This document shows, in pieces, positions 2,141 through 10,853 of a stretch of DNA of 20,000 nt. The stretch is taken from the IMG/VR virus record IMGVR_UViG_2061766007_004155. One strand, given 5' to 3'. The first letter of the stretch is position 1; the number at the start of each line of letters is the position of its first letter. Source of the stretch: an uncultured virus (IMG/VR IMGVR_UViG_2061766007_004155). Taxonomy: Duplodnaviria; Heunggongvirae; Uroviricota; Caudoviricetes. The position numbers and the translations under genes were made by a program. A model generated the notes under the pieces. The model had not been told where the DNA came from, made no database searches, and saw only the letters and a list, made by a program, of their open reading frames with translations.

Positions 2141-3003
2141 GATTCTTTGTCGAAGAACTTCAACAAGCAATTGATAATTGCGGTATCGTAAGTTCTTGCA
2201 TCGTGACCACAGTTCGGTATGATAACCAAATCGCTATTGGCAGACAAATCTGGAACACCATTCAGGAACGTATTATACATCTCATGGGTCTGCGCATAGG
2301 CATTGTCTTTATCCCCGCACCCTGCATAGAAAAACGAAATCGAATAACGACCAATTTCAGAAATAACGTCTTTGATAGATGATGACAGGTCAGCGTGGAA
2401 AATAGATGAAGCGCCAAACCAAGAGAACAGGTCAATACATTCAGGGATAATGTACTTCGGAATCATTGTTGATGTGTAGCTGAAGCCGAATGTGCCGAAG
2501 TGTTCACGTGCGTTTGATATGGAAATACTGTCCGTTCCTTTAGCGTATGTGCTGTAGTTTGATATCATATACGGAAGCAAATCATAACGCAGTTCATTAA
2601 TAAGCTGATTCCCGTCCAACTCCATAACAGGATGACCCTCAACAGTAGCACCGTAATAGGGGAGAGTAACAATGATTGACGGCTCGATAACCTTTGCGTC
2701 GATAAGATTATCCAAAACATTCTGAAACTGAACACTATACAGAACAGGGGAGTATCTGTGCGCTCTGCTAAGATAACAGGAATACGGCATATCCATGCCA
2801 GGTAGCAGAACCATTACATTGTATTCTTTGAGAGTGTCGTACCCATAGGGAACGTAAATGCAAATAGGTTTCTTAAATGCTGTTGCGGATTTGCCGCTGT
2901 ACCAATGTGTATGGTACTGAATCTTAATTACTTCGCCTCTGCGCTTTGACTGCTTCCACAGAGTAGGATCATCTAACGATAAGCAGGGGTAATGAAAATC
3001 CAT
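2137..3003 (-). CDS. Alpha/beta-hydrolase, putative esterase (Fes/XynZ CE1-like)
   Basis: IYVPYGYD..EYNVMVLLPG N-terminal motif; ELRYDLLPY; GFSYT nucleophile elbow; CGDKD; GHD His. Confidence 0.8.
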   Translation of the reverse strand: MDFHYPCLSLDDPTLWKQSKRRGEVIKIQYHTHWYSGKSATAFKKPICIYVPYGYDTLKEYNVMVLLPGMDMPYSCYLSRAHRYSPVLYSVQFQNVLDNLIDAKVIEPSIIVTLPYYGATVEGHPVMELDGNQLINELRYDLLPYMISNYSTYAKGTDSISISNAREHFGTFGFSYTSTMIPKYIIPECIDLFSWFGASSIFHADLSSSIKDVISEIGRYSISFFYAGCGDKDNAYAQTHEMYNTFLNGVPDLSANSDLVIIPNCGHDARTYDTAIINCLLKFFDKES

Positions 3004-3314
3004 TATTTCTCTCCTTTGTATTTTCTTTCGCCGTCAGCACAGAACCATTCTCCATCATGGATATAACTTGCTTGCTTCGGGCAGAAACTTATATTCTTCT
3101 TTAAGTGTCTACAATCTTTACATCTTACTACTTCCACAACGTCGGCAGGATGCAACGCTTCTTTGTGCGCAATCCATCCAATATAGAATCTGCAAGTACC
3201 GCTGAAGTCTGCAACGCTGATTAATTCTTCTGGTTCAAAATTATTGTTTGTTACTTTTCTCTTGCAGTCCTTTGATGGACAGTCTGCCGAAGCACAATAA
3301 GTAATGTCAGCCAT
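3003..3314 (-). CDS. Cys-rich phage protein (ADVVEVVRCKDC...FCADGER C-terminal module)
   Basis: Recognisable phage module; coupled start and stop. Confidence 0.75.
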   Translation of the reverse strand: MADITYCASADCPSKDCKRKVTNNNFEPEELISVADFSGTCRFYIGWIAHKEALHPADVVEVVRCKDCRHLKKNISFCPKQASYIHDGEWFCADGERKYKGEK

Positions 3315-3531
3315 CTTCGATATCCTCAACCCATGTGCAAAACCTCATCCGCACACGCCCACATTTTGTGCAAGTTGCATTCGGCTTATTGCCTTGATAT
3401 TCAGGTATCTTTACCCTCATGTCGGGAGAAACGAACCTTCCGCACTTAGGGCATATTCGATAATAGCTATGGCAATACTCTCCATGACCGTAAACTACAA
3501 CAGGGACATTTTCTGAATATTCATCTGCCAT
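3307..3531 (-). CDS. Zinc-ribbon hypothetical protein
   Basis: CPKCG...CTKCG. Confidence 0.7.
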   Translation of the reverse strand: MADEYSENVPVVVYGHGEYCHSYYRICPKCGRFVSPDMRVKIPEYQGNKPNATCTKCGRVRMRFCTWVEDIEDG

Positions 3532-3534
3532 ATA

Positions 3535-3717
3535 TTAAGCCTCCGACTTCAACCATTCTAACCAAGCAAGATAGCATTTGCTTCTGTTTCCCTGACATTG
3601 CTCTGCGTTAATAGGGCATTGCCTGTCAATAGGGCAATCTGAGCAATAAGCTATATGGCTAATCCACTTTGCCAACTTCTTATCCTGCTTTGCTCTGATT
3701 TTATCCCCATTTTTCAT
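3535..3717 (-). CDS. Small Cys-rich phage protein (MxNGDKIR...WLEWLKSE type)
   Basis: AGGAG RBS; CxxC..C..C..C. Confidence 0.7.
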   Translation of the reverse strand: MKNGDKIRAKQDKKLAKWISHIAYCSDCPIDRQCPINAEQCQGNRSKCYLAWLEWLKSEA

Positions 3718-4376
3718 ATGTTTCTCCTAACTGATGTAGTAAATGCCTTTTCAACTGACCATCCACGCAAATAAAGCCTGTCATATAGCGTGTGATAGTT
3801 GATGCCAAGGCGGTCAGCCCAATAGGATAACTGCATAGTTTCGCCGTTGTATGTCAGCCATAGCGTTCGTGCTTGGTTATTGTTCTGCTCTCTGACGCTT
3901 ACCCAACGGCAGTTATTGGGGGAATAACCCTTACTCACATCAATGCGGTCTATTGTCAAATCGTCTGCGTACCCATGAGATAACGCCCATTCTTTGAACG
4001 GTTCAAAGTGTTTCCAATCCTCACAGACGGCAATCCCTTTCGCGCCGTATCTTTCCCACGATGTATCATTAGGGTTTGTACATCTTTGAATGATTCCAGC
4101 CCATTCCCGATAGAGCCTTGTGCCAACACCACCGTGAATGGTATTTCTTTCTGCACTCCGTTTTGCGGAACAGCATGAACAACGCTTTGTGTTGCCACTT
4201 GTAACGGAATTCTTACGAAGCACAACCTCGTTTCCGCAATCACATCTAAACAACCAATAGTGTTGACCACCCTTAACTCGGTTATCACGATGGTCAAATC
4301 TGATAGCCGTTAGTTCTCCAAACTTTTGCTGTGTAATATCCCTTGTCTTATTTGGTTGGAAACAAGTCCTACCCAT
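3714..4376 (-). CDS. HNH-type (beta-beta-alpha-Me) homing endonuclease
   Basis: KFGELT..WLFRCDCGN..CSC; RC..YGAKGIAVCEDW; LTIDRIDVSKGYSPNNCRW..EQNNN; C-terminal HTH-like segment. Start MGRT at 4376 after GGAGG. Confidence 0.9.
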   Translation of the reverse strand: MGRTCFQPNKTRDITQQKFGELTAIRFDHRDNRVKGGQHYWLFRCDCGNEVVLRKNSVTSGNTKRCSCCSAKRSAERNTIHGGVGTRLYREWAGIIQRCTNPNDTSWERYGAKGIAVCEDWKHFEPFKEWALSHGYADDLTIDRIDVSKGYSPNNCRWVSVREQNNNQARTLWLTYNGETMQLSYWADRLGINYHTLYDRLYLRGWSVEKAFTTSVRRNI

Positions 4377-4671
4377 CTTTACCCTCCACTTCCGCCGGAT
4401 ACAGCGCATCCAACTTTTCCATATCTGTCTCGACAAACAAAACATCCATCTGTGTTGCGTCTTGATTATAAACAGCCAATCCGTGATTTAATCCCCTTGC
4501 TGTGCTACCTGTAATCTCCCTGTAGTCAGAACGTTGAATCTTGTCAATCACTTCGTCTCTGTCCCAATCCGCCCCAACCAATGCAAGCGGAGAACTGACG
4601 AATGTGTGGACTTGTTCTCCTTCTGGAAGCAGTTCAGTTGCTTGCTGTGTTGTAAGAAATATTCTGCTCAT
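4369..4671 (-). CDS. Hypothetical protein
   Basis: ORF with coupled junctions on both sides. Confidence 0.7.
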   Translation of the reverse strand: MSRIFLTTQQATELLPEGEQVHTFVSSPLALVGADWDRDEVIDKIQRSDYREITGSTARGLNHGLAVYNQDATQMDVLFVETDMEKLDALYPAEVEGKDG

Positions 4672-4850
4672 CACTCACCCTCCTCCGCCTTCTCTGCCAA
4701 TGGGCAACGCAAATAGCAGTAATCTTCATCACAGGCATCGCACTCATAGCCAAGCACATCACAAGCGCAAAGCAAATCGTCAACGCTCATGTCAATGACA
4801 TGGAAGTGTTCGCAATTCTTATCCCAACAGTCCTTTGGAAATCTGCTCAT
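4671..4850 (-). CDS. 59-aa Cys/acidic-rich protein (not in ORF track)
   Basis: Manual translation MSRFPKDCWDKNCEHFHVIDMSVDDLLCACDVLGYECDACDEDYCYLRCPLAEKAEEGE; GGAGGAGG RBS; fills the gap exactly. Confidence 0.75.
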   Translation of the reverse strand: MSRFPKDCWDKNCEHFHVIDMSVDDLLCACDVLGYECDACDEDYCYLRCPLAEKAEEGE

Positions 4851-5107
4851 GTCTCGCCCTCCTCCGCTTCGACGATTTTAGTCCATTCAATCATCTCATT
4901 CCATTTATTAACCGCATCGAATTCCGTTTTCCCTACAGGAGATTTCCTGTGGCAGTTGTTGCATTCATAAAACAAACCTTCTGCTGCCCACCATTTTGCC
5001 CTCCTGTTGCAACCACATACGCATGGTAACTTCTTTGGCATTTTCTTTATTGGAATTAATTTGTAGCCAAGTTTTGCTGCTTCTGCTTTTAATTCAAAAA
5101 TGTCCAT
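4847..5107 (-). CDS. Lar-like (restriction alleviation family) zinc-finger protein
   Basis: LPCVCGC...YECNNC...DAVNKWN pattern. Confidence 0.55.
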   Translation of the reverse strand: MDIFELKAEAAKLGYKLIPIKKMPKKLPCVCGCNRRAKWWAAEGLFYECNNCHRKSPVGKTEFDAVNKWNEMIEWTKIVEAEEGET

Positions 5108-5321
5108 CGCTCATGTCTTCTCCGCTTAATGGTTTTTCATTCCATACGAAAGCACCGCACAGTTTGCAATCAGCAACAGGCTCTTCTGTCATTGTCTCCC
5201 ACATTCCGCAACAGAACACACGCTTGTCTCCAAGTCCGTATTCGTTGGTCGTGGTATGTGCCTTCTTACACATTGGCGATAGTGGTTTGCCACGCAATTG
5301 CGCCCTCGATACCCGTTTCAT
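5094..5321 (-). CDS. Cys-rich hypothetical protein
   Basis: Coupled ORF with RBS; C..CCG..CKLC. Confidence 0.7.
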   Translation of the reverse strand: MKRVSRAQLRGKPLSPMCKKAHTTTNEYGLGDKRVFCCGMWETMTEEPVADCKLCGAFVWNEKPLSGEDMSDGHF

Positions 5322-5509
5322 GTTCCATCCTCCTCATAAAGAATCTTCTTCAGCCTTTTTTTGCACTCATCACATATTTTTGGGACTTGGTTATAGCTAC
5401 CGTAGTACCCAAATCCAAGCGGAATAAAATCATCACAAATTATGCAACTTGTACCAACTTGGCACGGATGTGGTTCAACCTTAATAGTTTCAAAGTCGTC
5501 TATACTCAT
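5318..5509 (-). CDS. Zinc-finger hypothetical protein
   Basis: CIIC...ICDEC. Confidence 0.7.
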   Translation of the reverse strand: MSIDDFETIKVEPHPCQVGTSCIICDDFIPLGFGYYGSYNQVPKICDECKKRLKKILYEEDGT

Positions 5510-5847
5510 GTTCCATTAATCCATTTAATAATTGTTTTGTAAGCATACATTTCCGGGAATTTAATAATCATATGCAAGTTATAACAAGAGATAAGCGTAA
5601 AGCCAATGCCAAAACTAAAACCTATAACAGCAACAGCTGCGAATATTATATCTGATATGCCATATGCATCTTTTCGATAGCATCTGATGGCCAATAATGT
5701 AGACATTGTGCCAATACCAATTAAAATAAATCCAGCCACTAAGCCGATCCCATTATTGTGGGTGCAGTATTCAATAACAGCCGGAATAATGTTTTCTACC
5801 GTTGTGCCAAGCTTTTGGCATATCATCTCGATTGTTGTTTCGTTCAT
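5506..5847 (-). CDS. Predicted membrane protein (2 TM helices)
   Basis: Hydrophobic stretches GIGLVAGFILIGIG and IIFAAVAVIGFSFGIGFTLI; AAGGAGG RBS. Confidence 0.75.
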   Translation of the reverse strand: MNETTIEMICQKLGTTVENIIPAVIEYCTHNNGIGLVAGFILIGIGTMSTLLAIRCYRKDAYGISDIIFAAVAVIGFSFGIGFTLISCYNLHMIIKFPEMYAYKTIIKWINGT

Positions 5848-5960
5848 GTTTCGTCCTCCTTTATTGCCCCAAGCGGGGCATCGCTACATATAATCTGGTG
5901 TGCAGTCACTTCCACCGTAACCGTTTCTGATGGGGCATCACCCTCTTCCTATTTTGATTT

Positions 5961-6131
5961 TCAAAATATCGGACTCTCCCTATTCGCGTAAGGGCAAGTG
6001 TTATTCCAATCTACATCTTTCCCAAAGTATTCAGATTTTACACATTTGCAAATTCCATGCGTACAACTGCAAAAGCCGAAACTGTCACAATATAAACAAT
6101 ACAACACAAAGTTTTCATCTTCTATACTCAT
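5961..6131 (-). CDS. 56-aa Cys-rich protein (not in ORF track)
   Basis: MSIEDENFVLYCLYCDSFGFCSCTHGICKCVKSEYFGKDVDWNNTCPYANRESPIF. Confidence 0.6.
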   Translation of the reverse strand: MSIEDENFVLYCLYCDSFGFCSCTHGICKCVKSEYFGKDVDWNNTCPYANRESPIF

Positions 6132-6138
6132 TTCATGT

Positions 6139-6318
6139 TCAATCCTCCTCCGCTCCGGTTGTTATCTCCCAAATATAAAATGGTTTTTCACATAACAATT
6201 CTTTTCTTACCTTTAACAGTTTCTTTTTATGCAATTCAGAAACAATTCTATATGCCACTTCAATTTCAACAGGAAGTTCTTTGCATGTTGGAGTGACAGC
6301 ACCTTTTAAAATCGTCAT
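6139..6318 (-). CDS. Hypothetical protein
   Basis: GAGGGGG RBS before MTILK. Confidence 0.6.
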   Translation of the reverse strand: MTILKGAVTPTCKELPVEIEVAYRIVSELHKKKLLKVRKELLCEKPFYIWEITTGAEED

Positions 6319-6332
6319 GTTTCCCCCTCGAT

Positions 6333-6719
6333 TTAATTCAGTTCCCATCCGTAATGTTCTGCCACAGAAGTGAACTGATTAATTGAGTAATATCCTGTGT
6401 CATCGTCATCAAGTTCAAGACCGTTCTCAAGGACTTTACACCATGCCCTTACAACCATGCACATCAACCCTGAAGAAATACCGCGTTCATTAATTGCTTT
6501 TTGATAGCCAAACTCAACATCTCTCTTCAATTGCGCAAGAATGTTTTCTTCCGTCCATTCTTTAGGAACATAAGAGCCTTCACCGCCATATCCGAATCCG
6601 AACTGTTCCCATTCTTCCACAGGAAGGAATTCAATAAACCTCTTTGTAAAACGTCTATCAAAAATATAGTCTTCCTCAAACTTACCGATGTGGTTCTTTA
6701 CATAATCTAATGTTTTCAT
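6333..6719 (-). CDS. Phage hypothetical protein
   Basis: 128-aa ORF; EWTEENILAQLKRDVEFG..RGISS motif. Confidence 0.8.
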   Translation of the reverse strand: MKTLDYVKNHIGKFEEDYIFDRRFTKRFIEFLPVEEWEQFGFGYGGEGSYVPKEWTEENILAQLKRDVEFGYQKAINERGISSGLMCMVVRAWCKVLENGLELDDDDTGYYSINQFTSVAEHYGWELN

Positions 6720-6766
6720 TCACTCACCATCCTCATCCCCTGTAATCATAATTGCGAGGTATATAT

Positions 6767-6955
6767 TCATACATATTTCTCCCACGTATTTTTCTTTTTT
6801 GGATCATCTGTCCACAAATCGCAAGCTTCATCATGTGGAGGGGTTACATTAACAGGAACGCCGACATAATAAAATCCATATTCCTCACATACCCACCCAA
6901 GATTTTTAGTCTTTTCGCAGTTAACGCAGTTCCCACAACTCCGTTCTTCTTCCAT
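6767..6955 (-). CDS. Small Cys-rich protein
   Basis: CGNCVNC...C...ACDLW. Confidence 0.7.
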   Translation of the reverse strand: MEEERSCGNCVNCEKTKNLGWVCEEYGFYYVGVPVNVTPPHDEACDLWTDDPKKKNTWEKYV

Positions 6956-7065
6956 TACTCACCATCCTCATCGTCATCGGAAGAATATGATTCTTCGCAT
7001 TCACTCTCATAGAAATCGTGGTTGGCATACCACTCTCCAAGGTCTTCACCATAAGTAAATTCCAT
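6955..7065 (-). CDS. 36-aa highly acidic peptide (not in ORF track)
   Basis: MEFTYGEDLGEWYANHDFYESECEESYSSDDDEDGE; overlaps both neighbours by 1 nt. Confidence 0.6.
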   Translation of the reverse strand: MEFTYGEDLGEWYANHDFYESECEESYSSDDDEDGE

Positions 7066-7280
7066 CACCAACCATCCTTCCACCTGCACCCATCGCAAGC
7101 ACCCTCGTGCTTTTTCTCGTACTCACCGCATCTCCAACACAGTTCGTTCTTGCAGTCTTTCAAATCAATCAGAGCAGTATCTACTTTCTGTAGAATGATT
7201 TGCAGTTCGGAATCATCTGCTATAACTTTCATCATTGACCGGACATTCTTAATCAATTCACACAGTTCGTCGTACTTCAT
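7065..7280 (-). CDS. Cys-rich phage protein (NELCxxCG...GACDGCRW)
   Basis: Coupled ORF; Cys motif. Confidence 0.75.
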   Translation of the reverse strand: MKYDELCELIKNVRSMMKVIADDSELQIILQKVDTALIDLKDCKNELCWRCGEYEKKHEGACDGCRWKDGW

Positions 7281-7921
7281 CACTCACCATCCTTCCGCAT
7301 GTCAGCACCGTGGGATTGCCTCCAACCTTTTGTTCTCAATCTTACAGGGCGATTAATGGCATCTTCTACAGACCACCCTGTGTTAAGCCGTTCTTTAAGT
7401 GTTGTTTTGCTGATGCCAATTTTTTCGGCAAGTTGGGTAAGCGTGTATTTATTCCCTTGGTACTCAATTATCCTGTTATTTCTCCTATTGTTCTGTTGTT
7501 CTTTCATGGTAACCCATCTGCAATTATTAGGGGAATAGCCTTTTTCGTTGTTTATCCTGTCAATGGAAAGACCGTCATTATATCCATGCTGAAATGCCCA
7601 TTTTGCAAATGGCAAATATGAATCCCATTCTTTGCAAATAGTTATTCCTCTCCCACCATATTCATTAAAATGTGGATGCTTATCGTATTCACATCTTGCA
7701 TGAATTGATTCCCATATTTTTCGGAGGCGATGATTGTTGTATAGTTCGCTTTCTGATATTCCTTTGATTACTTCATATCCTTTGCATTTTGTTTTACTGC
7801 GGTAACAACTTGCAATTGTGCATTGCACAACTCCAAGATATTCGCAAGCGTTTTTTTCTGATTGGAATACAAGATATTCGTCCCCTTTTTTTAGGATATA
7901 TGGTGATGTTTTATGTTCCAT
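7280..7921 (-). CDS. HNH-type homing endonuclease with NUMOD1-like N-terminal HTH
   Basis: Start MEHK after GGAGGAG; FQSEKNACEYLGV; RC..YGGRGITICKEW; LSIDRINNEKGYSPNNCRW..EQQNNRR. Confidence 0.9.
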   Translation of the reverse strand: MEHKTSPYILKKGDEYLVFQSEKNACEYLGVVQCTIASCYRSKTKCKGYEVIKGISESELYNNHRLRKIWESIHARCEYDKHPHFNEYGGRGITICKEWDSYLPFAKWAFQHGYNDGLSIDRINNEKGYSPNNCRWVTMKEQQNNRRNNRIIEYQGNKYTLTQLAEKIGISKTTLKERLNTGWSVEDAINRPVRLRTKGWRQSHGADMRKDGE

Positions 7922-8234
7922 GCTCTCCTCCGTTGTAACTGCCGCAGTTGGGGCAGAAGTTGTGAAGTGGTTGAACATGGATTTTTGTGAATACATACCC
8001 ACATTCAGAACATTTGTAACGGAAGATTTCAAGACCGTTTAATAATTCAATTCTGTCACCACCGTTGTCTTCCCACTTTCCATGCCTGACTTCCGCAACA
8101 TCTGCGGATGGGATGGAATCAATGGCCCGAGCCGCATCCCCACGAATGACCCAACAGTAACCGTCACCGTCTACCTTTGGCACAAGTTTTAGGATGGCGT
8201 TAAATGCCGCTTCTCTTTCGATGCAATCAGCCAT
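7911..8234 (-). CDS. Phage zinc-ribbon protein (ADVAEVRHGKW...CSECG...FCPNCG)
   Basis: Well-known Firmicutes phage module; AAGGAGG RBS. Confidence 0.85.
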   Translation of the reverse strand: MADCIEREAAFNAILKLVPKVDGDGYCWVIRGDAARAIDSIPSADVAEVRHGKWEDNGGDRIELLNGLEIFRYKCSECGYVFTKIHVQPLHNFCPNCGSYNGGEHGT

Positions 8235-8781
8235 CTGTTTCCTCCTTTGGCGGTTCGGGGAAATACGGAACGCACTTCCATGTCACACCGTTAATAGCGT
8301 TCTGCATTGTTTTCTTCGATACTCCGTATCTATCAGCAAGTTCTTGAAACGATGTTCCCTTATAGGCGCGTTCCCATCTCGCGTCTTTGACAGTTTTCTT
8401 CGTCAGCTTTGATGTTATTTGTTCTTCTCCAACCTTTACAACATTGCGCCCTTTGCGTTCTCTGTCGGCTACGTTGTCTGCTCTCGTTCCCAAAAACAGA
8501 TGCTCCGGGTTTATACAGGATGGATTATCGCATTTGTGGCACACTTCAAACCCGTCCGGGATTTCACCATTCCATGTGATGTATGCCAATCTATGCGCTC
8601 TTTCAGAACGACGCGTTCCGTCTGTTCGGCTACCAACTATTGTGTGTCCGTAGCCGCCTCTTTTGCATCCAGTCCACTCCCAACACCCAGATACGGGATT
8701 GACTTTCATGTTTGCTTTAAGACGTTCTTCAATTGGCATGGTCGGCATACCGCGTTTTCTTGCGCTATAATCAGGTTTCAT
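8227..8781 (-). CDS. HNH endonuclease (HNH_3 type) with C-terminal HTH
   Basis: GCWEWTG..GYG..RAHRLAY..VCHKCDNPSCINPEHLFLGTRADNVAD; SFQELADRYGVS. Confidence 0.92.
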   Translation of the reverse strand: MKPDYSARKRGMPTMPIEERLKANMKVNPVSGCWEWTGCKRGGYGHTIVGSRTDGTRRSERAHRLAYITWNGEIPDGFEVCHKCDNPSCINPEHLFLGTRADNVADRERKGRNVVKVGEEQITSKLTKKTVKDARWERAYKGTSFQELADRYGVSKKTMQNAINGVTWKCVPYFPEPPKEETDG

Positions 8782-9130
8782 TTAATCCCTCCGTACTTGG
8801 CAACGGCATCCAATGGGTTATGTCTTCCTGCATAAAAATTATCCATCGTCCATGATCGCAAACATCAAAGCATACTCTTGAAATATGGCGACCCCAAACT
8901 AAAACAGTATGGTCATTTTCCGGCAACCTCTCACTCACAGGAATCCACTTCGGCAACTGCGCTTGAAGTTCCTCTATGGCATCAGCTGCATCCAATTGCA
9001 AAACGGAATTGCAATTCCTACAATCACGGTCGCTCTTCATAGCCATACACCCAATTAATTCTTCCGCTTCTCCAGCGCAGTCATGTGTTCCGCAGTATCT
9101 AAGGTCTTTTATCAGTTCATCGTACTTCAT
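8771..9130 (-). CDS. DUF551-domain protein
   Basis: AADAIEEL; WIPVSERLPE...VLV...ITHWMPLP. Confidence 0.85.
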   Translation of the reverse strand: MKYDELIKDLRYCGTHDCAGEAEELIGCMAMKSDRDCRNCNSVLQLDAADAIEELQAQLPKWIPVSERLPENDHTVLVWGRHISRVCFDVCDHGRWIIFMQEDITHWMPLPSTEGLNET

Positions 9131-9150
9131 GTTTACTCTTCCATAACCTC

Positions 9151-9357
9151 CTACATTTCTACAGGCATACCAAATAGTGAGCAAATCCCACTCTCTTTAA
9201 CCCAACACGGGCAAGTTGAATTCACGTTTTCCATAGCCTGTATAGTTCTTAGATAAACAATTACATCAACAATAGCTTCTGCATAGTCAGGGTCTAACCT
9301 TTCAGCAATGCATTGCTCGGAATACCTTAACAGCCTGTTAATCAATTCTTCCAACAT
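9151..9357 (-). CDS. Hypothetical protein
   Basis: 68-aa ORF in operon orientation. Confidence 0.55.
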   Translation of the reverse strand: MLEELINRLLRYSEQCIAERLDPDYAEAIVDVIVYLRTIQAMENVNSTCPCWVKESGICSLFGMPVEM

Positions 9358-9432
9358 CTAAAAAACAACCCCCACCCTATAAAATCTATTGCTATAAAAA
9401 GTAACTCAAGTTGTACAAATCCGCAGAGCATA

Positions 9433-9897
9433 TCAGCCAAGCCTCCTCCGGCAGAACTCGGCAATCATAAGCGCATCGGCAATTCCGTCATCATCCGTTC
9501 TGCATTTCGGAGTACGTTTCAGAGATACATCAGGGAAGAGTTCTTTTGCGACCTGAATAGTACGGGCTTTCTTCTCCGCTTTTGAATAATCTTTAGAAAG
9601 GTTTAGGCTAAATGTGCGCTTCCAAGTTTGTGAAGGAATCAATTGAACAGGGATTTTGAATGCGTAACACATTCCCCTTACAAATCCCCAGTTCGTTCCG
9701 AAGTTGAATGTTGACGAGATACCTTGCCCAGGCATTGAACCAACTTTTTCGATTGCCATAACACAATCGTCTTTAGACCATCTATCTAAAGCTTCACGGT
9801 AATTTTCTTCATCGAATGGTATAATTTCCACCCCGTCATCAGAGATGCACACAAGCGCTCCTGAAGCCCCTGGGTCACAGCCAATGTATCTTTTCAA
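9433..9897 (-). CDS. RuvC-like Holliday junction resolvase (phage type)
   Basis: YIGCDPG (Asp), AIEKV (Glu), STFNFG, QTWK, DGIADALMIA (Asp); TTG start overlapping the recombinase stop. Confidence 0.88.
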   Translation of the reverse strand: MKRYIGCDPGASGALVCISDDGVEIIPFDEENYREALDRWSKDDCVMAIEKVGSMPGQGISSTFNFGTNWGFVRGMCYAFKIPVQLIPSQTWKRTFSLNLSKDYSKAEKKARTIQVAKELFPDVSLKRTPKCRTDDDGIADALMIAEFCRRRLG

Positions 9898-10853
9898 GAT
9901 GCAATACCTTCTTTCTTGTAAATACTCGAAACAGTTTTTGCAAAGTTGCTTGCAGTTAATTCGGGGTCAAGGTCTTTAGCGTAAATGGCAGTGGTTTGCA
10001 GACGGCTATGACCAAGCATGTTGCTAATAGCTTCAATGGACGTTCCGCCTGTGAGCGACACAGAAGCAAAAGCATGACGAAGAGCATGAGTTCTTGATGC
10101 TTTCTCTTCGCCAAGCACACCGCTTACATAACTGTATACTTTTTCAGAGAGTTCAGTTCTTTCAAATCCACGCCACTCACCGCCGTTTGTTACGACACCG
10201 AACAGCAGATCATCACTTGTGAGAAGATATGGTCTTAATCCGCTATTAAGATAATCGTTAACAGCAGACTGCGCTTCCTCTGTAAACGGTACATATCTTG
10301 GCTTACCACCCTTTGCAACCTCGCAATAAATCGTTCCTGTTTCAAAGTTCAGATTCCTGAGTTTAAGATTCCTCAGTTCTATGTTACGCATACCAGATGT
10401 GAGGAACACAGTTACGATTGCCTTTTCCCTTACAAACGTTCTCGGTGTCCTGCGCCCTTCGGTTGTGTACCTCTCCGCACTCATAAGAGCCATTGCGTCC
10501 TGCGCATCAAGGACGTGATCGTATTCCTTGTTCTTCTCTTTGCTAATCTGCTTCTTCGGCGGGAACATCTTCTCCACAACAAAAGGAGCGGAGTAAATGC
10601 AAGTATCTACACCGAAATCTGACAGGTATTTAAGGATTCTCAGGTACATATCGAGAGTGCGGAATGAAACATTAAGGCTCTCTTTCCACTTGAGAGTAGC
10701 AATTGCGCTTGCATCTTCATACCCGTTATTCTCCAAGAACTCACGGTAAAACCTGAAGACGTTTGCGTAAGTTTCCAATGTGGCTTTTGTGCATTCATTT
10801 GTACGGCAGTTTGACATAAACATATCAACTGTTGTTTTGTAGTTTTCTAACAT
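9894..10853 (-). CDS. Tyrosine recombinase/integrase (XerC/D-like)
   Basis: Catalytic set intact: SGMRNIEL (R), AKGGK (K), HALRH, LGH, TTAIY; N-terminal SAM-like domain. Confidence 0.93.
   Translation of the reverse strand: MLENYKTTVDMFMSNCRTNECTKATLETYANVFRFYREFLENNGYEDASAIATLKWKESLNVSFRTLDMYLRILKYLSDFGVDTCIYSAPFVVEKMFPPKKQISKEKNKEYDHVLDAQDAMALMSAERYTTEGRRTPRTFVREKAIVTVFLTSGMRNIELRNLKLRNLNFETGTIYCEVAKGGKPRYVPFTEEAQSAVNDYLNSGLRPYLLTSDDLLFGVVTNGGEWRGFERTELSEKVYSYVSGVLGEEKASRTHALRHAFASVSLTGGTSIEAISNMLGHSRLQTTAIYAKDLDPELTASNFAKTVSSIYKKEGIAS

Follow-up and report, generated by a model that had tools for sequence, protein, structure and literature searches.

A conserved gene-end motif split by a putative mobile endonuclease cassette in an uncultured phage

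In a 20,000-nucleotide (nt) stretch of DNA from an uncultured virus of the Caudoviricetes (IMG/VR record IMGVR_UViG_2061766007_004155; hereafter the window), a small zinc-ribbon accessory gene carries an aberrant end, and the end that is usual in its family is found, in frame, at the C-terminus of an overlapping gene for a 213-amino-acid (aa) endonuclease-like protein. We consider it probable, with a good deal of room for doubt, that this protein represents a free-standing clade of I-HmuI-like endonucleases residing at the gene-end motif CPNCG/A-x-M (the slash marks the junction). The clade would travel, presumably by homing, as a mobile cassette made of a substitute gene end and a stopless open reading frame (ORF) that reads into the displaced tail. 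The layout had been pointed out in a reading of the sequence made without database searches (the original prediction). Its parts are as follows.

7911-8234, minus strand: zinc-ribbon accessory gene, 107 aa, with a conserved N-terminal domain, a variable CxxC...CxxCG ribbon and an aberrant tail.
7941-7955, minus strand: codons TGC CCC AAC TGC GGC of the CPNCG knuckle, the left half of the presumed target motif and the putative 5′ junction of the cassette.
7911-7940, minus strand: substitute tail SYNGGEHGT with its stop, holding GGAGGAG (7925-7931) and the endonuclease ATG (7919-7921).
7280-7921, minus strand: endonuclease-like gene, 213 aa, without a stop codon of its own before the stop of the host gene.
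7763-7918, minus strand: NUMOD-like DNA-binding domain at the N-terminus (residues 2-53); the L246-type endonuclease discussed below has a C-terminal domain that is 58% identical to it.
7472-7735, minus strand: HNH-like core (residues ~63-150), with IDRIN in place of I-HmuI VDHKD.
7352-7471, minus strand: C-terminal helix-turn-helix region (residues ~151-190), with weak Pfam HTH_10/HTH_24 matches and model helices at 161-190.
7310-7351, minus strand: basic linker RPVRLRTKGWRQSH (residues 191-204), clade-conserved and predicted to be disordered; its S-H is the eroded remnant of S-N-C.
7280-7309, minus strand: displaced native zinc-ribbon tail GADMRKDGE with its stop, in frame as the endonuclease C-terminus and equal to the tail of the homolog P0007.

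The anatomy of the split motif at the junction is plain from the ORFs. The zinc-ribbon ORF has the C-terminus ...LHNFCPNCGSYNGGEHGT, i.e., NFCPNCG-SYNGGEHGT, and the endonuclease ORF has ...RTKGWRQSHGADMRKDGE, i.e., WRQSH-GADMRKDGE, each followed by a stop, just as the original prediction had it. When 7310-7943 (634 nt) is deleted in silico, the zinc-ribbon frame enters the endonuclease frame and CPNC-GADMRKDGE is restored, again in agreement with that prediction; the joined DNA reads ...TGC/GGT GCT GAC ATG CGG AAG GAT GGT GAG TGA.

The restored end is of the kind that the family normally has, which had also been claimed. A terminal CxxCG is present in 67 of 96 zinc-ribbon homologs, and the next residues are A-x-M in 60 of the 67 (ADM 27, ARM 13, AKM 7, AMM 7, others) and SYN in only two. 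In an alignment (A2) of 46 zinc-ribbon sequences, conservation is 90% or more at A99 and at M101. P0007, nearly the same as the window protein in its N-terminal domain, ends exactly NFCPNCGADMRKDGE; another homolog, P0046, ends KFCPNCGADMRTEGE. The window ORF itself matches Pfam Zn_ribbon_8 (E 6.6e-6, under the curated cut-off) and phrog_22543. Its CPNCG codons agree with the consensus of 78 distinct phage sites at 15 of 15 bases. The conservation looks codon-level, with weak third positions, and so the consensus tells neither for nor against a DNA recognition site. In the proteins P0051-P0083, the N-terminal domain MAEYIEREAAFNAILKLVPKVDDDGYCWVIRGDAA..DV.PV occurs with three classes of C-terminal module, each with a stereotyped gene end: the CPNCG-A-x-M ribbon, ..DDFCS[YR]GE[KR]RE.., and DUF551 ..HWMPLPEPPKEE.

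The tail of the endonuclease is the displaced tail of a zinc-ribbon gene, and thus of host origin, as its distribution among relatives shows. In the best 120 of 543 endonuclease homologs, which were tallied as the clade, an A-x-M tail follows the conserved ..RTKG[WY]R.S in 73; the longer forms NCG-A-x-M and CG-A-x-M are found in 17 and nine, respectively. Several further homologs among the 120 have degenerate A-x-M tails, and 13 are tail-less, ending ..KGWRQSA. P0097, 96% identical to the window endonuclease, ends ..QSNGADMRKDGGT, i.e., S-NG-ADMR. Since relatives end S-NCG-ADMR or S-NG-ADMR, the S-H-G of the window is an eroded S-N-C-G, which places the true junction a few codons 5′ of G/ADMR. 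This bears on the CGG at the two edges of the deletion (7944-7942 and 7310-7308). The triplet does occur at both junctions, as the original prediction stated, but it does not mark their position: the apparent microhomology is the leftover of a longer duplicated AAC TGC GG.

In the wider family (34-56% identity; ORFs re-read in 161 loci, L001-L161, most from alignment scans), the protein stops within a few residues of ..PVR.., with L003, L082 and L083 as exceptions. The window has a tail-less paralog of its own at 3714-4445, 36% identical to the 213-aa protein up to PVR/SVR. The paralog was correctly taken to mean that the tail is an extension, but it ends three residues after SVR and not four. 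In the AlphaFold model, the predicted local distance difference test score (pLDDT) is 86-96 over residues 11-190 and 68, 52 and 44 across residues 191-213. The last ~23 residues of the endonuclease are an extension. Near-identical endonuclease bodies can differ in the distal tail: P0189 and P0197 (98% identical) end ADMREVTT and ADMRGEKDG, P0162 and P0167 (94.5%) end AKMDGGED and AKMDLEG, and P0108 and P0117 (92%) make a third such pair. Hence, crossovers appear to fall within or just 3′ of the motif.

The evidence at the other edge of the cassette concerns the substitute tail. The start of the endonuclease, ATG GAA CAT AA, overlaps its last codons, GAG CAT GGA ACA TAA, and thereby fixes them. 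A search with P0085 as the query collected 206 zinc-ribbon proteins, 159 of them with a terminal CxxCG. SYNGG(E/K)(H/D)GT ends seven of the 159, which represent six distinct bodies (the window protein together with P0001; P0085; P0221; P0264; P0312; P0324) that are 27-58% identical in pairs or not alignable. When the five nearest other bodies of each carrier are inspected, the tail is A-x-M in 33 of the 35 listed neighbours and CDM in two. P0085 is the same, residue by residue, as P0218, P0217 and P0219 over the ~40 residues that lead up to and include NFCPNCG (..WIEQEDGFGDTYYDCSCCGESFCLIEGTPTDNMYNFCPNCG), and then diverges, having SYNGGEHGT where the other three have ARMDGE, ARMDGGT and ADMRKEGE, respectively.

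The association also holds when one starts from the endonuclease. Three relatives (P0104, P0114 and P0125; 62-64% identical) have run-on N-termini whose alternative frame fits C-x-N-C-G-[S/G]-Y-N-G-G. All three of these testable relatives are thus preceded by a CxNCG that is incompatible with A-x-M, which is the pairing of endonuclease tail and upstream gene that the original prediction expected. At the DNA level, a 1424-nt contig of the metagenome run X5 matches 7616-7961 of the window with 16 differences and then continues into a different upstream body. The similarity ends at 7961, just 5′ of NFCPNCG; on the downstream side, 6742-7457 is ~99% identical. The longest contig listed for P0264, a carrier of SYNGGEHGT, is 1424 nt, the same as the X5 contig. 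As SYNGGEHGT is found on six bodies whose nearest relatives carry ordinary zinc-ribbon tails, the tail follows the endonuclease and not the body. Sharing of the tail by six bodies further implies that the spare tail and the endonuclease travel together, in a single cassette joined at CPNCG. The substitute tail and the endonuclease have therefore moved jointly between gene bodies.

By sequence and fold, the 213-aa protein is a homolog of I-HmuI-like endonucleases; its cleavage activity is putative. It matches phrog_3377 (E 2e-53) and phrog_374 (E 1.7e-43), both annotated as HNH endonuclease. Pfam gave no HNH model and weak helix-turn-helix matches alone. A profile of the clade (A1, 72 members) found I-HmuI in the PDB (1u3e, E 1.3e-4, query 110-152 to chain 63-106). 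The match of the same profile extends to the N-terminal ~50 residues, which align with the NUMOD-like domain of I-HmuI (residues 124-168), and relatives of the endonuclease have weak matches to PF22083, the I-HmuI NUMOD-like family. With the AlphaFold model (mean pLDDT 87.8), Foldseek placed 1u3e at rank 2 with a probability of 1.00 and a root-mean-square deviation of 2.1 over 54 columns, yet with an E of 0.21. The protein thus resembles the beta-beta-alpha-metal motif of the HNH or His-Me finger (I-HmuI-like) enzymes. The Asn residues of the motif are kept: N133 is invariant and N144/N145 are at least 90% conserved, aligning with N..RWVT and ..EN of I-HmuI. H82 is invariant elsewhere in the HNH-like domain.

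The window is phage-like. All of its genes are on the minus strand, small and tightly packed, with overlapping stops and starts. Other features that bear on the junction are listed here.

7065-7280, minus strand: downstream 72-aa gene, whose ATG (7278-7280) overlaps the endonuclease stop.
8227-8781, minus strand: neighbouring HNH_3 endonuclease gene (Pfam HNH_3, E 4.5e-15), ending YFPEPPKEETDG.
8771-9184, minus strand: DUF551 gene (Pfam DUF551, E 1.2e-10), ending WMPLP-STEGLNET.
3714-4445, minus strand: paralogous endonuclease-like gene without a captured tail, ending SVRRNI.
9894-10853: tyrosine integrase.

The endonuclease ATG (7921-7919) sits 11 nt inside the zinc-ribbon gene, behind the ribosome site GGAGGAG (7931-7925). 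Its stop (7282-7280) is part of TGATG, in which the TGA overlaps the ATG of the next gene, and the region of the displaced tail holds the ribosome site for that gene. No promoter- or terminator-like site was found on the minus strand in 7283-8234. The endonuclease has an ORF, a ribosome site and an ATG to itself, is in a different frame from the host gene, and does not lie inside an intron or intein; an Rfam scan of 6500-9500 returned no family at E <= 1, and hence no match to an intron model. On the minus strand of 2500-9200, nearly every small gene ends ..[DE]-G-[ET] or ..EE[DG][ET], and its stop is overlapped by the start of the following gene. Gene ends in this region double as ribosome sites, and the last three to five codons of every gene are consequently constrained. 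The 72-aa gene is absent from contigs of runs X4 and X7 (joint 7062 to 7278), which suggests that it is itself a variable cassette that begins exactly at the endonuclease stop.

We propose the following scheme. The cassette would start with the SYNGGE... end, which would terminate the invaded gene right after its last zinc-binding Cys-Gly and at the same time provide what the endonuclease needs to be translated, a ribosome site and a start codon. The stopless endonuclease ORF would then run in frame into the displaced (N-C-)G-A-D-M-R-K-D-G-E and borrow its stop. Because the endonuclease reads to the native stop, the native ribosome site and the stop/start overlap of the next gene are retained, and because the displaced tail provides that gene with its ribosome site and overlapping start, translational coupling is kept on both sides. 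As the motif is split by the cassette, the occupied allele has no intact target. The flanking copies of the motif, CPNCG on the left and (NC)G-A-x-M on the right, could serve as short homology arms with any gene ending in the motif. We infer that the endonuclease would cut intact CPNCG-A-x-M sites and that repair would copy the cassette in, as in homing. Intact sites of the TGCCCNAAYTGCGGNGCNGAYATG type would be the presumed targets; DNA coding for NFCPNCGADMRK is expected to be sensitive, and that coding for NFCPNCGSYNGGE and WRQSHGADMRK resistant.

A similar arrangement recurs in the adjacent pair of genes. The DUF551 gene ends WMPLP-STEGLNET and the overlapping HNH_3 gene ends YFPEPPKEETDG, which is the same layout at a different motif, PLP/EPPKE. 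BLASTP found no similarity between the 213-aa protein and the HNH_3 protein. Both substitute tails, of the zinc-ribbon and of the DUF551 gene, begin with AGT and contain ACGGAGG, as had been noted. In a contig of run X7, 8799 is joined to 8253 with four letters between, and the DUF551 gene reads ..WMPLPEPPKEETDG before its stop. This joint is a DNA-level empty allele of the HNH_3 gene. The claim that a second, unrelated HNH family does the same in the neighbouring gene is therefore borne out, and the comparison of empty with occupied alleles that was called for could be made for the HNH_3/DUF551 pair; for the zinc-ribbon locus of the window, four runs and IMG/VR yielded none. Further joints in the HNH_3 region are 8259 to 8918 in X7 and 8256 to 8967 in X3; X3 also has DNA without the HNH_3 gene.

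Related layouts were found in other genomes. L083 is a short-form clade member that lies behind a gene ending HCPNCGCRMDGGDDE and itself ends ..YRTSASCGAKMDGGDSDEAD. The contig that carries it (C27 of G002) has three matches to the endonuclease profile (L330, L332 and L333) within ~31 kb. The window, too, has three endonuclease-like genes. Behind the zinc-ribbon gene in six of 80 IMG/VR loci from the zinc-ribbon alignment (three distinct arrangements), there is a different, third type of endonuclease of 184-188 aa (phrog_953/2081), whose C-terminal NUMOD-like domain is 58% identical to the N-terminus of the window endonuclease. This type also has AKMD/ARMD tails: L246 and L259-261 end ..KCKGYKI-AKMDKEETNELD, and L265 ends ..KCKGYTI-SKMDGGEEDEK. 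The NUMOD-like domain is thus N-terminal in the window endonuclease and C-terminal in the L246 type (L246:2320-2475), and both types are found at CPNCG/A-x-M. Site specificity may reside in this domain, or a nested invasion may have produced the long form; in the latter case, the long-form endonuclease (NUMOD-like domain first) may be a short-form gene that invaded the tail of an L246-type gene. At L245:2160-2291, a 43-aa remnant of the L246 type, with the NUMOD-like end alone left, still bears a captured ..ARMDEEDEHEAD tail; the zinc-ribbon gene ahead of it ends CPNCGALMREDDNGKE, and the remnant has the look of a cassette in decay. Presence may be patchy: the SYNGG tail is on seven of 159 proteins, L246 and L317 differ at the DNA level, and the HNH_3 gene has an empty allele, none having been found for the zinc-ribbon locus in four runs and IMG/VR. 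The suggestion of a general, intron-free homing mode thus stands as regards recurrence (a third endonuclease type, L083) and the lack of an intron; that a nuclease drives it does not follow, given the invariant Arg described next.

Several observations weigh against the proposed scheme. The first His of the HNH motif is the catalytic general base. In the 213-aa protein, VVDHKD of I-HmuI aligns with tIDRId, and R122 is invariant in the 72 clade sequences; the paralog likewise has IDRID, and the L246 type has Lys (LDKD) at this position. With Arg or Lys in place of the catalytic His, nuclease activity is uncertain. Clade members with zinc-ribbon-like tails follow non-zinc-ribbon genes in L003, L242 and L243. 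Tails of the CPNCGSYNGGEEE type occur on four IMG/VR genes that have ordinary genes and no endonuclease downstream, and SYNGG is to that extent also a free-living tail class. These genes (L324, L325, L326 and L328, all zinc-ribbon) end CPNCGSYNGGEEE, ..EKE or ..EEDDSISD. They could be either the natural source of a resistant end or the footprint left after loss of an endonuclease. In L317 and L246, a whole second zinc-ribbon body is exchanged: the place that the body of gene B takes in L317 (1997-2272) is held in L246 by the endonuclease body (1957-2469), with the same start ATG and with homology resuming at ..AKMDKEETNELD. Break repair in a tandem array would leave such a swap when its left crossover lies in the upstream gene; plain modular recombination would fit too.

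The searches for an empty allele of the window locus belong here as well. No contig in X3, X4, X5 or X7 skips 7310-7943, parts of the region being uncovered in these runs; this does not speak against the existence of empty alleles. A pattern scan of IMG/VR for DNA coding for CPNCGADMRKDGE gave 0 matches. The pattern FCPNCGADMRK is found at 22 IMG/VR loci and ends a gene in 21 of them; the next ORF is a clade endonuclease in 0 of these 21, and 0 of the 22 are syntenic with the window. At one of these loci, L340, a wider-family relative of the endonuclease lies ~450 nt downstream. Most of the evidence is at the protein level. DNA nearly identical to the window is present in bovine gut and other gut metagenome runs. 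GenBank phage DNA matches at 68-72% identity over at most 8% of the query, and the 155 records from the GenBank phage protein search are every one below 60% identity. In IMG/VR, a single-protein scan returned two distant loci and a clade-specific DNA pattern another two (L242 and L243). The matches listed from alignment scans were mostly of the wider family, the clade members among them being L003 (IMG/VR) and L082 and L083 (GTDB genomes). No clade member was among the 80 loci listed from a metagenome alignment scan (34-54% identity), and 400 genomes sampled at class level around G001 yielded seven wider-family matches and no clade member.

These observations can be accommodated without homing. 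Under passive mosaicism, the motif and the ends that bear ribosome sites would act as short homology linkers, and the endonuclease-like gene would be a passenger, or a non-cutting DNA-binding protein, that was once fused to a tail. The replacement of the catalytic His by an invariant Arg is in line with such a role. So are the mosaic structure of the zinc-ribbon genes themselves (one N-terminal domain with three C-terminal module classes), the exchange of bodies that sets L246 apart from L317, bounded in both by the same ATG and AKMD motif, the tails retained by clade members in contexts without a zinc-ribbon gene, and the failure to find an empty allele of the window locus in four runs and IMG/VR. 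On the other side, three endonuclease architectures, and essentially only those, are fused to displaced tails at CPNCG/AxM and PLP/EPPKE, and one substitute tail with an embedded endonuclease start is found on six bodies. Several copies per phage and the apparently patchy presence are, moreover, both typical of homing genes. We regard passive mosaicism as unlikely, if well worth keeping in mind.

The exchange between L317 and L246, with the same ATG and with homology back at the same tail, raises the further prospect of gene-slot replacement. The upstream gene would then be intact, with a natural SYNGG tail, and the endonuclease would have replaced a second zinc-ribbon body of which the last 9-12 codons were kept. 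SYNGGEEE tails, known without an endonuclease downstream, agree with this. The tail SYNGGEHGT does not, because its last codons are fixed by the endonuclease start, and it sits on six bodies whose nearest relatives end in A-x-M or, in two cases, CDM. Break repair in a tandem array should likewise lead to loss of a body, which would make such replacement a sub-case of the homing scheme. We think gene-slot replacement improbable. It is harder still to credit that the endonuclease family had the (N)CG-A-x-M stretch from the outset as a functional part of its own, e.g., a degenerate zinc knuckle, and that the stretch came to resemble zinc-ribbon ends by convergence. The stretch is indeed kept in many clade members, some not beside zinc-ribbon genes, but it is missing from the wider family and from the 13 tail-less clade members, is predicted to be disordered, joins at varying positions (S/NCGA, S/GA, R/AKM), differs distally between near-identical bodies, and matches at 9 of 9 residues the tail of a homolog of the immediately upstream gene.

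If the preferred reading, a cassette of endonuclease and spare gene end moving by homing, is true, homing of this kind extends from fungal mitochondria and yeast nuclei to bacteriophages, and its target is a short motif of many different genes instead of one gene. A concrete mechanism would be at hand for the breakpoints that recombination leaves at the gene ends of mosaic phage genomes, and the odd C-termini and run-on ORFs that confuse annotation would be explained. The presumed resistant and sensitive tails would make a compact pair for cutting tests, and the question is raised of how an HNH-like fold with Arg for the catalytic His could act. A bolder extension is possible, and we offer it tentatively. 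A short gene-end motif, CPNCG/A-x-M or PLP/EPPKE in DUF551 genes, may serve as a portable homing site across dozens of non-orthologous accessory genes of gut and rumen phages. Several unrelated endonuclease families may have converged there on one seamless cassette, in which a resistant substitute tail bears the ribosome site and the start, the endonuclease lacks a stop, and read-through into the displaced tail preserves operon coupling. This traffic might be a main cause of uniform gene ends and of body mosaicism, and might operate through an HNH-like site without the canonical His.

Phage genes split by homing endonuclease genes (HEGs) include T4 gene 60 (MobA) and Aeh1 nrdB (mobE). Free-standing HEGs of phages (T4-like, ICP1; seg, mob, T5orf172) resemble the window gene in being intron-less, patchy, located between or inside genes, and at recombination boundaries, but as a rule they lie between genes or divide one gene into two pieces that both function (PMC10448857, in excerpt). 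In the same excerpted text, no case was found of an endonuclease ORF that runs into a displaced host-gene end while supplying a substitute end (PMC10448857), and the full-text literature (subscription journals not covered) gave no phage description of the tail-swapping layout. The layout is known from fungal mitochondria and yeasts and is apparently not yet described for phages. The original prediction called the mode little-described; this is right for phages, not overall, since the same logic has been published for fungal mitochondrial mobile ORFs (mORFs) and for the WHO elements of yeasts.

In fungal mitochondria (Allomyces macrogynus atp6; Glomus atp6, atp9, cox2 and nad3), the excerpted account places an endonuclease ORF in the 3′ region of a gene; the gene is expressed with a substitute C-terminus that comes with the element, its native C-terminus lies displaced beyond the ORF, and the insert and ORF are sometimes in phase with the gene (PMC3630166). 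The enzymes are LAGLIDADG or GIY-YIG, and tens to hundreds of codons are replaced by a homologous foreign copy of one gene (PMC3630166, likewise in excerpt). In the window, an HNH-like enzyme is found at a motif of 5-8 codons common to many non-orthologous phage genes, the substitute tail is of a different class, and the displaced tail is translated as the endonuclease C-terminus. The parts of PMC7282813 that concern FBA1 in Torulaspora and Lachancea describe how homing of WHO elements leaves the target with a new 3′ end that resists cleavage. A fragment of the former 3′ end persists immediately behind the endonuclease gene, where it acts as the second homology arm, and ectopic copies keep it (PMC7282813); the tails of L242, L243 and L003 away from zinc-ribbon genes may be compared. 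According to the same parts, WHO proteins are intein-derived LAGLIDADG-zinc-finger proteins of the eukaryotic nucleus with a single main target gene, and the fragments, ~400 bp long, are not read as part of the endonuclease (PMC7282813).

In the window, as in mORF and WHO elements, an element-borne substitute 3′ end lies directly upstream of the endonuclease and the displaced native 3′ end directly downstream of its ORF. The enzyme is HNH-like and not of the LAGLIDADG, GIY-YIG or intein-derived kind. Nor is the substitute end a diverged homologous copy in the long-form clade, where the CPNCG knuckle is all that SYNGGE.. has in common with A-x-M tails; the short-form relative L083 has a homologous-looking copy, CRMDGGDDE against CGAKMDGGDSDEAD. 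The best solved relative is I-HmuI, the intron-encoded HNH nicking endonuclease of Bacillus phage SPO1 (1u3e), with which both the HNH region and the NUMOD-like domain align. The window endonuclease differs from it in a permuted domain order (NUMOD-like first), in not being intron-encoded, and in the Arg at the motif His (VVDHKD). By analogy, then, the window cassette would work like mORF and WHO elements without being a member of those families.

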